Origin: Bacteriovoracaceae bacterium
Lineage (GTDB): Bacteria; Bdellovibrionota; Bacteriovoracia; Bacteriovoracales; Bacteriovoracaceae
Assembly: GCA_048270185.1 (NCBI GenBank)
Contig: JBLWTJ010000004.1
Location: 164,615 to 228,614, forward strand
Direction of reading: 5' to 3'
Length of the DNA: 64,000 bases
Positions 9,701 through 62,686 of the stretch are shown here, one piece after another (position 1 is the stretch's first letter; each line of letters starts with the position of its first letter). The notes under the pieces are model-generated. The model saw only the letters and a list, made by a program, of their open reading frames with translations, was not told where the DNA came from and did not search any database. Position numbers and translations under genes: made by a program.

Positions 9701-10813
9701 TCAAATTCTAAGTGGCATAATGATTCCAAGATAGTTTTGGATGTCATTAGATCTAATAATTACAGCTGAGAATTCATTGTTAAATTCAAACGTAACATTT
9801 TCAGAATTTAAGATCGCAATTGAATCTAGTAAGAATCGAGCATTAAATCCAATCTCAATTTCCTTTCCGTCATAATCAATAGCGATAGTCTCTTTAGCGT
9901 CACCAAGTGATGGATGGTTTGCAGAGATCGTCATATTGTTTTCTGTTAGTTTGATCTTAACAGCGTTTGATTTCTCGTTAGACATGATTTTGATACGTCT
10001 AATAGCGTTTTGTAGAACGTCTTTGTCTGCTGTTAATGAATATGTTGTCTTAGCAGGAATTACTGCTTGATACTTTGGATACTCTCTAGCAATTAAACGA
10101 ATACTTAGTTGATATTGTTCATTTGCAGTTACATATAAATATGAGTCATCAACAGAAATAAAAAGATTAGCACCTGGGTATGTTTCTGCAATTTTTCTAA
10201 GTTCTGAAACACCTTTCTTTGGAATAATAATTCCGTTAATTAGAGCTTCATTATTTTGAACTGTTAAATCATGTTCAATTAGTGAAAGTCTATGACCGTC
10301 AGTTGAAACAGCTCTAAGCTTACCTTCAACTTCTTGGAAGTAAATTCCGTTGAAGTGTAATCTCGTTTCATCATTTGAAATCGCGTATGAAGTTTTAGTA
10401 ATTAAATTTAATAGATCATCAGAATTTAGATTGAAAGTATTATCGCTTCCAAAGTGAAGTTTTGGAAATTCATCTGCTTCATAAATTAACAGTGAATAAT
10501 GGATATCTTCACAATTTATTTTTAGAAGATTTTCACCTTCTTCCAACTCCATGTGGATATCTTTGTTAGGAAGTTCCCTTAATATATCGAATAAATTCTT
10601 AGCGTTGATACAAAATGATGCTGATCCTTCAGTTTCTGCATTGATTGAGTATTTAGCTGATACTTCTAGATCTGTAGCTGATAAATATATTCTCTCGTTA
10701 CTAACTGTGAAAAGTGTATATGTTAATATCGGTCTTGAATTCTTCTTATCAATAACAGTTAAAATTTTATTGAGTGCATCTCTTAAATTATCTGGATCTA
10801 CCCTAAGCTTCAT
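9701..10813 (-). CDS. dnaN: DNA polymerase III beta clamp
   Basis: SATDLE, STDGHRL, IGFNARFLLD, C-terminal IMPLRI; start placed at the ATG 6 nt after AGGA (10819 is an alternative). Confidence 0.97.
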   Translation of the reverse strand: MKLRVDPDNLRDALNKILTVIDKKNSRPILTYTLFTVSNERIYLSATDLEVSAKYSINAETEGSASFCINAKNLFDILRELPNKDIHMELEEGENLLKINCEDIHYSLLIYEADEFPKLHFGSDNTFNLNSDDLLNLITKTSYAISNDETRLHFNGIYFQEVEGKLRAVSTDGHRLSLIEHDLTVQNNEALINGIIIPKKGVSELRKIAETYPGANLFISVDDSYLYVTANEQYQLSIRLIAREYPKYQAVIPAKTTYSLTADKDVLQNAIRRIKIMSNEKSNAVKIKLTENNMTISANHPSLGDAKETIAIDYDGKEIEIGFNARFLLDSIAILNSENVTFEFNNEFSAVIIRSNDIQNYLGIIMPLRI

Positions 10814-10879
10814 CTTCATTCCTATCAAAAATATTGTTGTAATGTTGTATAATGGAAAACACACGTTAGCAAGCTTGAG

Positions 10880-11565
10880 CTTAGTTTTTAATAGCTTTCA
10901 CAGCTTTCTTCCTATCTTCTTTTTTATATATATATTTATATATATTATTATTAAGTCTGTGGAAAAGTTCATAACTCTCGAGGCCTTGATTACTACTCTT
11001 TTGGGCCAATTTCGCAATTGTTAGCAATGGTTGATTAAAAAATATTTCGCTTTGCATACATTCGTATATTATCAATTGAGCAACAATATTTTGACGTTAT
11101 CAGATTTTTACTCACGGCCCAATGTTGATAATTTTAGGGCCATGCATAAAAGTTAAGTTTTCTTAATTTTGACTAGTCATTTACTCACATTTTCTAAACA
11201 TGTTGATAACTTTTTTATCCACGGCCTAAGTTTTTGTCGATAATATTTTCCACGGCCGTGAGTAAGTTCTAATATTCTATTTAACTTACTGTTATTATTA
11301 GATAAATTTATTAACAATATATTTTCATGGCCGTGGATTGGCCGTCTGTGGCCGTTAATAACTAACAATCTGTCGGACCATTTCTGACTAGTCAAATAGT
11401 GCTGTGAATTTGTCGGCCATTTGACTAGTCACAATATTCACTTATCAGCACATTTTTGTTGATACTGACTGGCCAAGTATCCCCAGAAATGACAAAGGCC
11501 GTGGATAAACACGGCCTTCTTATATGTGACTAGTCACTTTGAAATTTTATAATTTGAAATTTTTT
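10880..11565. promoter_or_regulatory. Predicted chromosomal replication origin oriC (dnaA-dnaN intergenic)
   Basis: AT-only tract 10921-10954 next to box TGTGGAAAA (10958-10966); further box variants at 11181, 11201, 11215, 11235, 11246, 11257 and 11500; same location as Bdellovibrio oriC. Confidence 0.9.
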
Positions 11566-13179
11566 TTAGAGTAAATTCTCAATTGTCATAATTGTACGAG
11601 ATAATAGGGGATCCTCTGGCAATTGTTTTGAGATTTTCTGTTCAGCATGGACAACTGAGCTGTGATCTCGTCCACCAAAGAACTGACCAATTTCTTCATG
11701 AGTTGCATTAGCAAGCTTACGACATAAGTACATGGCCACGAAACGCGCATTAGCGATATCCTTCGTACGTGATTTTGACTTAAGATCAGCAATAGGGATT
11801 TTAAAATGTGATGAAGTTTGCTTAGCAATTCCTTCTATTGTAATTTTCTTTTCATCTTCGAAATCTCTAAGTGAAAGAACCTCTTTAACCATCTCTAATT
11901 CGATATCAACCTTCATGATATCAGAGTAGGCTGAAAGCTTAATTAGAGCACCCTCAAGCTCTCTAATCGAGTTTTTAACGTTACAAGCGATAAGATTAAC
12001 AATGTCTTCAGATAGGAAAAGATCTAAGTCATCAGCCTTTGTATTAATGATGGCCGTACGAGTTTCAATATCTGGTTTTTGAATATCAACAACCAGACCC
12101 CACTGAAGGCGAGTCTTAATTCGCTCTTCAAGTCCGTTGATCTCTTGTGGTGTTTTATCTGATGTGAAAATTAATTGCTTACCTTTTTGGTGAAGTTCAT
12201 TAAAGATATGGAAGAATTCACGTTGTGTACCTTCTTTACCTTTAAGTTCATGAACATCATCAATCATTAGAACATCAACTTTATCAGAATATTTCGAACG
12301 GAAGTCCGCAAGTTTACCATCGTGAATGGCCTGAATCATTTCCTTCATAAAATCACGAGCTGTAATTAGACAGATGACATAGTGAGGGTATTGATTTTGA
12401 ATCCCATTTGCCATGGCATGAAGTAGGTGAGTTTTCCCTAGTCCAGAATTACTGTGAATATAAAGAGAAGGGTACTTACCTGATTTACCTGGATTCTTTG
12501 AGATAGCAACTGAGGCTGCGTGGGCCATATTATTTGAAGGACCAATAACAAAATTATCAAATGTTTTCGACTTATCGATGATGATGCGATTGTAGTCATC
12601 ATTTACGTGATCGATATACTTTGATTCAACCTTAGAAAGTAGGTCTTCTTGAACTGGCTCTAAATCTAGTGTGAAAGACATATCTGATAGGGTCTTTGGA
12701 CGAGATTGCTGAGTCGGCTCAACTTGAAGGTTTGAAGATAAGTTACTGTTATTATTAGTAATTATCTCAATTTCATAAGATTTACCCAATGTATTTACAA
12801 TACTTTGTCTAATTTGATCGATATCTTTTTCAATAAATGATTTTATGAAGTTTGTTGTTGTTGAAAAGATTGCTTTATCACCGCTAATTCTTTTAAGACG
12901 AAAGAAATCACCTTGGAAGAAAGAAGCATATTTTTGTGAATTTACTAATAATTTCAGTGTCTTATGAATTTCTTCATTCATCATATTAAGTTCATCTTGG
13001 CTAAAGAACTCATCTTCAGACACCTGATTTGAACTTGTCTGTGCTAGATTTTGCTTAATATTAAATGGATCTTCAATAATTGTGTTTTGATTATTGTTGA
13101 GATCGACTATGTTATTGATTTTATTAGGTTGTGTGCTAGAAGTTTTCAAAAATTCGTTAAAAGGAAAATTACCCTGCAT
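11566..13179 (-). CDS. dnaA: Chromosomal replication initiator DnaA
   Basis: TFDNFVIG, SGLGKTHLLHA, MIDDV, NSIRELEGAL, GGRDHSSVVHA. Confidence 0.99.
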   Translation of the reverse strand: MQGNFPFNEFLKTSSTQPNKINNIVDLNNNQNTIIEDPFNIKQNLAQTSSNQVSEDEFFSQDELNMMNEEIHKTLKLLVNSQKYASFFQGDFFRLKRISGDKAIFSTTTNFIKSFIEKDIDQIRQSIVNTLGKSYEIEIITNNNSNLSSNLQVEPTQQSRPKTLSDMSFTLDLEPVQEDLLSKVESKYIDHVNDDYNRIIIDKSKTFDNFVIGPSNNMAHAASVAISKNPGKSGKYPSLYIHSNSGLGKTHLLHAMANGIQNQYPHYVICLITARDFMKEMIQAIHDGKLADFRSKYSDKVDVLMIDDVHELKGKEGTQREFFHIFNELHQKGKQLIFTSDKTPQEINGLEERIKTRLQWGLVVDIQKPDIETRTAIINTKADDLDLFLSEDIVNLIACNVKNSIRELEGALIKLSAYSDIMKVDIELEMVKEVLSLRDFEDEKKITIEGIAKQTSSHFKIPIADLKSKSRTKDIANARFVAMYLCRKLANATHEEIGQFFGGRDHSSVVHAEQKISKQLPEDPLLSRTIMTIENLL

Positions 13180-13336
13180 TTCGATTCCCTTGAGCTTGAC
13201 TCGTCAATTTTTCTTTAATTCTGTGTTGTGGTCAAAATTTGTATCATGGCCCAAAATCCTAGGCCAATAAAAAAAACAGTTTTTTGTGCATGGCCAAATA
13301 AATCAATTATTTTGGCCTGCACTATGTACAGGGCCA

Positions 13337-13365
13337 TTGACCGGTGATGCGAAATGGTATAATAC
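13337..13365 (+). promoter_or_regulatory. Putative sigma70 promoter of the rpmH-rnpA-yidC operon
   Basis: TTGACC (13337-13342) and extended -10 TGGTATAAT (13355-13363). Confidence 0.6.
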
Positions 13366-13419
13366 TAGCCCTTACAATATTAATTTTTAGTTTAACAGTT
13401 ATAGTTAGGTAGGTTGAAG

Positions 13420-13572
13420 ATGTCTAAAAGAACTTGGCAGCCAAAAAGAAAAAAAAGAATGAGAGTACACGGTTTCCTTAAGCGTATGGCGACACCAGGT
13501 GGTCGTAACGTTATTAAAGCAAGAAGAGCTAAGGGTCGTAAGCAACTTACTGTATCTCACGGTAAGAAATAA
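13420..13572 (+). CDS. rpmH: 50S ribosomal protein L34 (missing from the ORF track)
   Basis: Manual translation [50 protein letters not shown]. Confidence 0.98.
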
Positions 13573-13931
13573 TGACATCAGTTGATAGCACTTTTGATAA
13601 GTCATCAAGGCTGCTATCAACTGAAGACTTTTCTTATTTGCGTAAAAATTCAAGCGTAATTACCGATCGTTGGCTACGTATCTATTACAAGCCATCTCGA
13701 ATTAATTCTGAAACATCTAGAATAGGATTTTCTGTAACTAAGAAGGTAGGGAAAGCGAATAAACGCAATCTTTGCAAGAGAGTTATTAGAGAATTTTTCC
13801 GTCACAGTTCACTTCGAAACTCAGGACAGGACTTTATGGTCGTGGTCTCAAATCGTTTGTTTAAAAATAGTGAACAACCTAAAGATGATCTTCGTTCATC
13901 CTTGCAAAACGCCTTCGCAAAACTTCAATAA
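13572..13931 (+). CDS. rnpA: Ribonuclease P protein component
   Basis: RIGFSVTKKVGKANKRNLCKRVIRE (RNR motif); follows rpmH. Confidence 0.96.
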   Translation: MTSVDSTFDKSSRLLSTEDFSYLRKNSSVITDRWLRIYYKPSRINSETSRIGFSVTKKVGKANKRNLCKRVIREFFRHSSLRNSGQDFMVVVSNRLFKNSEQPKDDLRSSLQNAFAKLQ

Positions 13932-62325: not shown

Positions 62326-62351
62326 TCCCCCCCTAAGAGAAGAGAAATTAC

Positions 62352-62388
62352 AAAAAAGAAGGCCCTCAAAATTGAGGGCCTTTTTTTT
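62352..62388. terminator. Bidirectional intrinsic terminator
   Basis: AAGGCCCTCAA...TTGAGGGCCTT with flanking A and T runs. Confidence 0.85.
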
Positions 62389-62412
62389 GTTTATATTTAT
62401 GCAGAAGATTTC

Positions 62413-62686
62413 TTGCGATAACTTTCCCATTGGCCTAGAGACAACAAAGCCGGGCTTGAACCCGGCTTGTTGAATATGTAAATTATTTCATTGCACAGAG
62501 GCCTAGCACCGCGAACAATAGACTGGCCTTGGCTGGTAAATTGTTGCGATAACTTTCCCATTGGCCTTGAGACAACAAAGCCGGGCTTGAACCCGGCTTG
62601 TTGAATATGTAAATTATTACATTGCACTGAGGCCTAGCACCGCGAACAATAGACTGGCCTTAGCCAGTCAATTTCGCGGATGCTTA
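62413..62686 (-). repeat. Tandem 131-bp duplication of a hairpin-rich element in the etfA 3' region
   Basis: Units start at 62413 and 62544 (TTGCGATAACTTTCCCATTGGCC...), near identical; each has the CAACAAAGCCGGG/CCCGGCTTGTTG hairpin. Confidence 0.92.

Follow-up and report, generated by a model that had tools for sequence, protein, structure and literature searches.

The intergenic region between dnaA and dnaN in a member of the Bacteriovoracaceae, which is predicted to be the replication origin (oriC), is packed with the tetranucleotide GGCC, and a second cluster of GGCC sites lies in the region that contains the dnaA promoter. Both clusters were found in a stretch of 64,000 nucleotides from contig C4 of the source genome (G000:C4:164615-228614, hereafter the window), and it is very likely that they are real and maintained by selection. 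All sampled members of the family encode a solitary C5 cytosine methylase whose orthologs were not found in other families of the phylum, and GGCC is probably the sequence in which this enzyme forms 5-methylcytosine (m5C). The further proposal that m5C at the GGCC sites of the origin and promoter tunes the binding of DnaA and the transcription of dnaA is tentative. The source genome (3.35 Mb in 30 contigs, 36.6% G+C, 95.9% complete) is that of a marine bacterium, and its family, that of Halobacteriovorax and Bacteriovorax, is predatory.

GGCC sites in the origin and the dnaA promoter

The regions that carry the two clusters are as follows, with positions given in the window.

10865..11565, no strand: oriC, the dnaA-dnaN intergenic region, as predicted from open reading frames (ORFs), the GC-skew minimum and DnaA boxes
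10982..11516, no strand: 13 GGCC sites, at 10982, 11004, 11116, 11138, 11223, 11254, 11329, 11340, 11350, 11415, 11471, 11497 and 11513
10921..10955, no strand: AT-only stretch, free of GGCC
13180..13420, minus strand: rpmH-dnaA intergenic region with the dnaA promoter and five GGCC sites, at 13248, 13262, 13292, 13314 and 13332

An earlier note on this DNA had listed the 13 GGCC sites of the origin, all of which were confirmed and lie inside the dnaA-dnaN gap. The same note stated that fewer than one site would be expected, which is correct for base composition (0.48 per 701-bp gap) but understates the genomic background. Since GGCC is 3.24-fold over-represented throughout the genome (12,131 sites seen, 3,749 expected), the fair expectation is 1.9 sites per 535 bp. 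The Poisson probability of 13 GGCC sites is 1.4e-7 per 535-bp window, and about 9e-4 such windows are expected genome-wide. That the origin should be an outlier among intergenic regions was borne out both by sliding windows and by the ranking of segments, in which it came top. The genome-wide maximum for windows of 535 bp is the origin with its 13 sites, followed by windows with 12 and 11 sites and then by seven with 10, most of these being coding, and the origin is first in GGCC among 831 non-coding-like segments. GGCC density in the origin is 18.5-24 per kb (24 within the 535 bp) compared with 3.3 per kb in other non-coding DNA, a six- to seven-fold excess.

Enrichment in the origin is specific to the word GGCC and does not reflect G+C content, because GGCC lies inside 13 of the 14 G/C-only runs of at least four bases in the 701-bp gap and the gap contains no GCGC, CGCG or CCGG. 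The words GGGC, GCCC, CGGC and GCCG occur in the origin solely as overlaps with GGCC. The origin has a G+C content of 32%, and its GGCC sites are situated in the region of the DnaA boxes, outside the AT-only stretch. GGCT and AGCC, the precursors from which GGCC could arise by a single transition, are missing from the origin, where composition also predicts that they should be rare.

The cluster in the dnaA promoter region comprises five GGCC sites within 88 bp (13248-13335) of the 240-bp gap. Five or more GGCC within 90 bp occur at five places in the genome, the dnaA promoter being the sole non-coding one. By Poisson count alone the cluster is unremarkable, as about 0.8 windows of this kind are expected genome-wide; what makes it noteworthy is where it lies and how well it is conserved. 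Promoter sites number 5, 5, 5 and 4 in the four species of the genus and three in two sister genera, and alignment over the three genera places three of the sites within blocks that are conserved, namely TTTGGCCATGC, GGGCCATGnTAC and GGTCAATGGCC. From their sequence these blocks may resemble -35 or extended -10 elements. None of the five promoter sites adjoins a DnaA box.

A wider set of loci governed by GGCC was considered and rejected, as the remaining intergenic segments rich in GGCC consist of RNA genes, unannotated small ORFs, stems of terminators and a tandem repeat of 130 bp. GGCC is frequent in the terminator stems of this genome. Positions 62326-62683 of the window hold two tandem repeat copies of about 130 bp, each with three GGCC and a hairpin of the CCGGGC/GCCCGG type, and the repeat is preceded by a GGCC-stemmed terminator, AAGGCCCTCAAAATTGAGGGCCTTTT.

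The genes around the origin are arranged in the order rpmH (plus strand, from 13421), dnaA, the gap of about 700 bp and dnaN.

11566..13179, minus strand: dnaA
9701..10864, minus strand: dnaN, ORF as listed

The true start of dnaN is probably the ATG near 10821, in which case the gap may extend down to about 10822. Judged by its sequence, the gap is a replication origin of the dnaA-dnaN type, because a GC-skew minimum lies nearby and the gap contains both DnaA boxes and an AT-only stretch. Cumulative GC skew of the contig is V-shaped, with its minimum at C4:176970, inside dnaA and about 0.8 kb from the gap, which occupies C4:175479-176179. Seven DnaA octamers with at most one mismatch are present, and the AT-only stretch at 10921..10955 is a candidate DNA-unwinding element. 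PMC5124646 places the predicted oriC of Halobacteriovorax marinus SJ at the same location, in the dnaA-dnaN gap. A scan of positions 10500-13800 against Rfam gave no family above threshold. Assemblies of related bacteria often break within the origin, with the contig ending 30-440 bp past dnaA in seven of 30 drafts (loci L018, L021, L022, L023, L029, L032 and L034).

Conservation and distribution of the clusters

Eleven of the 13 origin GGCC sites are kept at the aligned position in the sister species G015, whose DNA is about 78-82% identical. In the alignment of the two origins, identity is 90% at the 52 columns occupied by GGCC and 67% at the 649 other columns. Genome-wide survival of GGCC in the same species comparison is 30% (n=674), as determined from a 241-kb alignment of three genomes (G015, G209 and the source genome) with 78-85% identity. 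Comparison of 30% with 11 of 13 indicates that ordinary GGCC sites turn over rapidly whereas those of the origin are held. Between G015 and G209, GGCC ranks 216th of the 256 tetramers in retention.

For surveys of other genomes, an origin cluster was defined as a dnaA-dnaN gap in which GGCC is at least 3.7-fold over its own 20-kb surroundings. Such clusters occur in 13 of 29 family genomes, belonging to about eight genera (g1, g14, g4, g19, g64, g66, g65 and g49), and in none of 22 genomes sampled from the phylum outside the family. The gaps of these 22 contain 0-2 GGCC sites, except for one atypical gap of 2,971 bp with 11, which corresponds to background density. In six of the 13 GGCC-rich origins (genera g1, g14 and g19; p 1e-6 to 4e-11), GGCC tops the list of enriched tetramers in the gap and stands above the DnaA-box words; in the other seven it is second to fourth or lower. 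In origins elsewhere CACA, CCAC and AT-rich words rank highest, and GGCC is not replaced by another GC palindrome. Over 28 family genomes, origin GGCC density and background GGCC excess are correlated with a Spearman coefficient of 0.77, a value uncorrected for shared ancestry.

One family member with 46% G+C (locus L084, G226:C2:1708200-1727300) has 212 GGCC in 19 kb, that is 11 per kb or 4.0 times expectation, and GGCT at 0.13 times. Its dnaA-dnaN gap of 2,082 bp is not enriched in GGCC, and the genome also encodes a second, more distant C5 methylase.

A solitary cytosine methylase conserved in the family

The earlier note had supposed that a conserved solitary cytosine methylase is encoded elsewhere in the genome. 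Such an enzyme exists and belongs to the core of the family, and no nuclease gene lies beside it. The source genome has one PF00145 gene, located outside the window (G000:C1:546351-547538) and encoding a protein of 396 amino acids that matches profile positions 1-324 with 241 bits. The motifs PPCQGFS and ENV are invariant in 19 orthologs. Full-length orthologs (45-89% identity) are present in 61 of 61 family genomes sampled, which represent 60 genera, and in 47 of 47 genomes of a second sample. Thirty other families of the phylum, represented by 154 genomes, yielded no ortholog; 11 of these genomes have distant C5 methylases only, with at most 38% identity. The neighbours of the methylase gene are a divergent MnmA-like gene, retained at 39 of 45 related methylase loci, and a gene of the Ppx/GppA family. 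There is no GGCC in the promoter of the methylase gene.

The sole other clear DNA methylase gene in the genome is type I and HsdM-like. Searches of the genome with PF01555 (the CcrM and M.Ssp6803II type) and with PF02086 (Dam) gave no matches, the latter profile having matched control genomes, while PF05063 (MT-A70) matched neither this genome nor the controls.

The catalytic core of the methylase is similar to that of M.HaeIII (E value 3.6e-36 to 1dct), and the recognition domain (approximately residues 199-304) is highly conserved across the family. Over this domain the ortholog of H. marinus SJ is 75% identical. When 5.8 billion proteins were searched with the domain, 489 hits were returned. 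Among the best 120 of the 489, none bears the name of a specificity, and the named hits are Halobacteriovorax, Bacteriovorax and Bacteriovoracaceae, apart from single metagenome-assembled genomes titled Bdellovibrio sp. and 'bacterium'. The AlphaFold model of the methylase has a predicted local distance difference test score (pLDDT) of 86.3.

At its C-terminus the methylase has a variable lysine-rich linker followed by a conserved tail, R-G-x-A-F-x-Y-R/K, in which R389, A392, F393 and Y395 are invariant in the 19 orthologs. In sequence the tail resembles a short peptide for docking to a partner protein, and it does not match the usual clamp-binding motif.

A genome-wide GGCC signature

Relative to a Markov expectation, GGCC is the highest tetramer of the source genome (1.97) and GGCT/AGCC the lowest (0.58). 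The excess of GGCC is found in coding DNA (3.6 per kb) as well as non-coding DNA, has no flanking preference, and amounts to 1.91, 1.87 and 3.67 in the three codon phases. In samples of 20 kb, the median Markov ratio of GGCC is 1.49 (0.81-2.81) over 32 family genomes, 17 of which have it as their top tetramer, and 0.96 (0.60-1.13) over 28 genomes of other families, where it is the top tetramer in one.

The signature is clearest where an alanine codon follows another codon. Observed/expected ratios for these codon pairs, with a hyphen at the codon boundary, are given below.

Source genome: G-GCC 3.65, G-GCT 0.37, A-GCC 0.29
Same genus: G-GCC 3.53, G-GCT 0.35, A-GCC 0.28
Other family genera: G-GCC 2.41, G-GCT 0.72, A-GCC 0.59
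Outside the family: G-GCC 1.02, G-GCT 1.13, A-GCC 1.02

The transversion neighbours are near expectation in the source genome (G-GCA 1.01, G-GCG 1.02, T-GCC 0.81). C-GCC is low at 0.49, yet so is C-GCN whichever base N is (0.49-0.88). Which alanine codon is used thus hinges strongly on the preceding base, a rule that is common to the family and absent outside it. Within the family the contrast between G-GCC and G-GCT is extreme in genera g1, g14, g4 and g19 and in G226, and flat in genus g36 and in G028. As read from these ratios, the synonymous transitions that turn GGCT or AGCC into GGCC are made wherever possible.

A comparable, weaker pattern is known at the Dcm sites of E. coli, where CCWGG is over-represented by 26%, which has been ascribed to conversion of CTWGG to CCWGG by Vsr (bioRxiv 10.1101/070839, citing Bhagwat and McClelland 1992). 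According to the same source, Vibrio cholerae, which lacks Vsr, under-represents its m5C motif. By analogy with Dcm and Vsr, the codon-pair signature suggests that the modified base would be the outer (3') cytosine of GGCC. Quasi-independence tables (GGCT 0.80, GGTC 0.82) did not tell the inner from the outer cytosine, as the codon-pair test did. HaeIII modifies the inner cytosine.

Organization of the origin sites

Seven of the 13 origin sites carry an octamer with at most two mismatches to TTATCCAC in one fixed register, which corresponds to eight of 26 half-sites, whereas the genome-wide rate of such box-fused GGCC half-sites is 176 of 24,262 (0.73%). Six clear copies of the composite 12-mer TTAYYCAC-GGCC are present in the origin. 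The perfect 12-mer TTATCCAC-GGCC occurs twice in the genome, both times in the origin, and TTATCCACGGCC is found nowhere in the genome except the origin. Because the register between octamer and GGCC is fixed, position 9 of the composite box is G, the first base of GGCC, in place of the canonical A. The sites and the plain boxes among them are as follows.

11108..11119, plus strand: composite box TTACTCAC-GGCC, a DnaA-box-like octamer with GGCC
11215..11226, plus strand: composite box TTATCCAC-GGCC, with a perfect octamer
11246..11265, no strand: two composite boxes that have one GGCC in common, TTTTCCAC-GGCC-GTGAGTAA, with the palindromic core CACGGCCGTG
11329..11361, minus strand: three GGCC sites spaced 10-11 bp apart, CAATCCAC-GGCC and TTATTAAC-GGCC (two mismatches each) and one box-free site
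11494..11519, minus strand: terminator-like hairpin, 47 nucleotides past the dnaA stop, with the GGCC at 11497 and 11513 as its stem
10958..11243: plain DnaA boxes without GGCC, at 10958 (minus, TTTTCCACA), 11123 and 11201 (minus, TTATCAACA), 11181 (plus, TTACTCACA) and 11235 (minus, TTATCGACA)
11170-11179, 11385-11394, 11422-11431 and 11527-11536, no strand: four exact copies of the 10-bp palindrome TGACTAGTCA, the sole four in the genome

The composite box also occurs in at least nine related origins. Among the 124 sites in 14 GGCC-rich origins, 58 are flanked by AC on one or both sides, with 43 half-sites reading YCAC-GGCC, and 66 have no AC flank; in the source genome the sites that lack this mark of box fusion number five of 13. 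The prevalence of sites without an AC flank suggests that the tetramer GGCC itself is the unit. Since seven of the 13 sites are fused to boxes and two form a hairpin, some of them are open to explanations other than methylation. The recognition helix of DnaA (GGRDHSSV[V/I]HA) does not set genomes that have GGCC-fused boxes apart from the rest. Nearest-neighbour spacings of GGCC in the 14 related origins peak at 10-11, 22 and 34 bp.

The hairpin at 11494..11519, a probable terminator of dnaA judging by its form, includes the composite box GGCCGTGGATAA, which is TTATCCAC-GGCC on the minus strand. As the stem-loop contains a perfect DnaA octamer, the binding of DnaA could interfere with the termination of dnaA transcription and vice versa.

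A copy of the palindrome TGACTAGTCA with one mismatch is located at 13197-13206, just upstream of the dnaA start. In two congeners GACTAGTC is present in three copies in the origin and nowhere else in their 19-kb samples, and one palindrome copy in G015 and G209 is TGACTGGCCA instead. The distribution of TGACTAGTCA suggests that it is probably the site of a genus-specific origin-binding dimer.

A model for the GGCC clusters and its alternatives

In the favored model, the GGCC sites of oriC and the dnaA promoter would be selected cis-elements and putative targets of the family-specific solitary C5 methylase. GGCC would carry m5C, at the 3' cytosine if the codon-pair signature is a guide, and repair biased from T:G to C:G would keep and multiply GGCC throughout the genome. 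Passage of the replication fork would leave the sites of the origin and promoter hemimethylated, and their methylation state would change the binding of DnaA at the seven box-fused sites (TTAYYCAC-GGCC) as well as the transcription of dnaA. Initiation could thereby be coupled to replication by a mechanism reminiscent of Dam/SeqA or CcrM control but based on m5C, possibly without a separate reader protein. The clusters, their conservation, the methylase with its distribution and the compositional signature are observed, whereas three links of this chain are inferred: GGCC as the target of the methylase, methylation of the sites, and an effect of methylation on initiation. A more specific version, in which DnaA itself reads methylation through methyl-switchable boxes such that the daughter origins differ after replication, is unlikely. 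In such a box, TTATCCAC-GGCC, position 9 would be changed from A:T to G:C, and the C of this pair is the outer GGCC cytosine of the opposite strand. Its C5 methyl group would sit where the canonical box has the methyl group of thymine, and a SeqA-like reader would not be needed.

Several observations weigh against the methylation model. The link between the methylase and GGCC excess comes down to one clade contrast and thus one evolutionary event. Sixteen of the 29 family genomes do not have a GGCC-rich origin though all carry the methylase, and about five of 32 have no GGCC excess though the methylase is present. Excess C-to-T loss at GGCC was not seen in the 241-kb three-genome alignment, where the few events were 11 of 772 for the outer and 22 of 772 for the inner cytosine; such losses were within the range of control contexts, and gains in the same genomes showed no clear excess. 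Other roles are plausible for the sites, as eight of the 26 half-sites abut boxes, two sites lie in the terminator-like hairpin, and the conserved promoter sites are embedded in longer conserved blocks. Helical phasing of the sites in the 14 related origins was not significant (Rayleigh z about 2.4 at 11-11.5 bp). The recognition domain of the methylase could not be aligned to any solved C5 methylase when the PDB was searched with phmmer and with profiles, and it has no tblastn match in 50,697 phage and 72,556 plasmid records. Foldseek comparison with the PDB was not discriminating, with DNMT1/MET1, 8yf3, 3g7u and HaeIII all giving template modeling (TM) scores of about 0.65. The weak hit that extends into the recognition domain, 8YF3, is a phage carboxymethyltransferase (PMC12783734). 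The target of the methylase therefore cannot be read from homology. No match to SeqA (PF03925) or the SRA domain (PF02182) was found in the 95.9% complete genome, and none to Vsr (PF03852), which was found in two of 61 family genomes.

The idea in the earlier note of a GGCC-methylation control analogous to Dam and SeqA is accordingly left standing in part. The outlying origin, the solitary methylase and the family-specific conversion signature at GGCC agree with it. The description of the enzyme as HaeIII type fails because none of the solved, phage or plasmid methylases, HaeIII included, resembles it in the recognition domain, and the hemimethylation reader that was supposed to be encoded elsewhere in the genome has no counterpart among SeqA or SRA-domain homologs. 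Because Vsr was found neither in the source genome nor in 59 of the 61 family genomes, some other, Vsr-independent repair activity must be assumed in the model. In G006 the best methylase copy (402 amino acids) is followed on the same strand, after a gap of 44 bp, by a Vsr gene (146 amino acids; G006:C3:50143-51829), a dcm-vsr-like arrangement that fits the model. The pair sits in a region of 60% G+C in a genome assigned to a low-G+C family, which suggests either a high-G+C family member or acquired or contaminant DNA.

The main rival to the methylation model is that GGCC is read as plain sequence, without methylation, either as part of an extended DnaA box (TTATCCAC-GGCC) or by an accessory protein that binds GGCC or CACGGCC. 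This explanation deserves serious attention but seems somewhat unlikely. It fits the fusion of eight of 26 origin half-sites to boxes in a fixed register, as against 0.73% of 24,262 genome-wide, the six copies of the 12-mer, the confinement of TTATCCACGGCC to oriC, the composite boxes of at least nine related origins, and the replacement of CACA by CGGC among the enriched words of the clade. Lineage-specific DnaA boxes of 12 bases are known in Thermotoga, which also counts in its favor. It is countered by the roughly one half of origin GGCC sites that have no AC flank (66 of 124, and five of 13 here) and by the promoter sites, which are not beside boxes, and plain boxes of the TTATCCACA type are present in the same origins. 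DnaA shows no clade-specific change in its recognition helix, and the family-wide conversion signature and its correlation with origin density would remain unexplained.

It has also to be considered that GGCC accumulates near dnaA as a by-product, without a regulatory role, through the drive from GGCT to GGCC together with hairpin stems and promoter hexamers. GGCC is indeed abundant everywhere (3.3 per kb in non-coding DNA), common in terminator stems and subject to fast turnover genome-wide, two of the origin sites are in a terminator-like hairpin, and the promoter blocks may be -35-like or extended -10-like. We regard a by-product as distinctly improbable, as under the drive non-coding DNA in general reaches 3.3 per kb, compared with 18.5-24 per kb in the origin, the GGCT and AGCC precursors are absent from the origin (where composition makes them rare), 11 of 13 sites are retained compared with 30% genome-wide, and no second intergenic region resembles the origin, the next GGCC-rich ones being RNA genes, small ORFs and repeats. 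Generic G/C clamps that stabilize the duplex around DnaA boxes would suit an origin of 32% G+C whose sites are in the box region and not in the AT-only stretch. Clamps are essentially excluded, since 13 of 14 runs contain GGCC; GCGC, CGCG and CCGG are absent, GGGC, GCCC, CGGC and GCCG appear as overlaps only, and origins without GGCC show no replacement GC palindrome.

Implications and comparison with known systems

The family as a whole has in its core genome a solitary C5 methylase whose recognition domain is novel, together with a Dcm/Vsr-like signature that is its strongest tetranucleotide bias. The signature is several times that of E. coli and occurs without Vsr, and in one sub-clade the origins and dnaA promoters are packed with GGCC, in part fused to DnaA boxes. 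If the links between these features hold, they would amount to a new epigenetic replication switch, a new specificity class of methylases and a new T:G repair activity. Methyl-switchable boxes, if true, would be the first case in which m5C licenses the replication of a bacterial chromosome, in predators that need several rounds of replication inside one prey cell before they divide, with licensing linked to a T:G repair independent of Vsr that would have reshaped the codon context of the whole family. If methylation is not involved, the composite element of DnaA box and GGCC and the origin-exclusive palindrome TGACTAGTCA still mark putative origin-binding factors.

The location of the origin is the same as in Bdellovibrio bacteriovorus, whose oriC lies in the dnaA-dnaN gap and has boxes of the NN(A/T)TCCACA type (Makowski et al. 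2016, PMC5124646); the accessible text of that paper contains no mention of 'GGCC' or 'methylation'. Within the portions of the literature that were available, no publication was found that ties Halobacteriovorax or Bacteriovorax, or their origins, to GGCC, methylation or a methylome.

Among known orphan methylases, M.Ssp6803II of Synechocystis, which acts on an abundant GGCC motif, is the nearest precedent, although the source genome has no enzyme of its PF01555 type. As described in the accessible sections of PMC6560206, M.Ssp6803II forms N4-methylcytosine on the first C of a 'frequently occurring' GGCC motif and affects replication and repair, and neither oriC nor dnaA is mentioned in them. 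The Synechocystis genome contains 38,512 GGCC motifs, according to bioRxiv 10.64898/2026.10.20.760421. Compared with M.HaeIII, the methylase described here is alike in its catalytic core but differs in having an unalignable recognition domain, a signature that implies the outer C, and no restriction partner.

Two solitary methylases of Caulobacter, CcrM (GANTC) and ScmA, are likewise conserved in their lineage but differ in motif and in enzyme lineage. CcrM couples dnaA and cell-cycle promoters to the passage of the replication fork. To our knowledge, few roles have been established for solitary m5C methylases of bacteria. ScmA (YGCCGGCR) methylates cytosine, is solitary and occurs together with a Vsr-like protein, and the accessible part of the report on it describes no role at the origin (PMC12907096).

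E. coli provides parallels to both halves of the model. The pair of Dcm and Vsr resembles the genome-wide signature in that a solitary PF00145 methylase is accompanied by over-representation of its presumed target and depletion of the C-to-T product, with specificity for transitions. The effect in the source genome is far stronger (3.2-fold; 3.65-fold vs 0.37-fold for the codon pairs) and occurs without Vsr, and we know of no role of Dcm at the origin. The system of Dam and SeqA resembles the proposed control of initiation. Both the origin and the dnaA promoter of E. coli are rich in GATC, and some GATC sites overlap or adjoin DnaA sites. As far as we know, control of initiation coupled to methylation has been established solely for adenine, by Dam and SeqA in gamma-proteobacteria and by CcrM in alpha-proteobacteria. 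The arrangement in the Bacteriovoracaceae differs in that the word is GGCC and not GATC, the candidate enzyme is a C5 cytosine and not an N6-adenine methylase, and neither Dam nor SeqA was found in the genome. Provided that GGCC is the target of the methylase, it is like that of E. coli in the clustering of the sites both in the origin (13 in 535 bp) and in the dnaA promoter (five in 88 bp).

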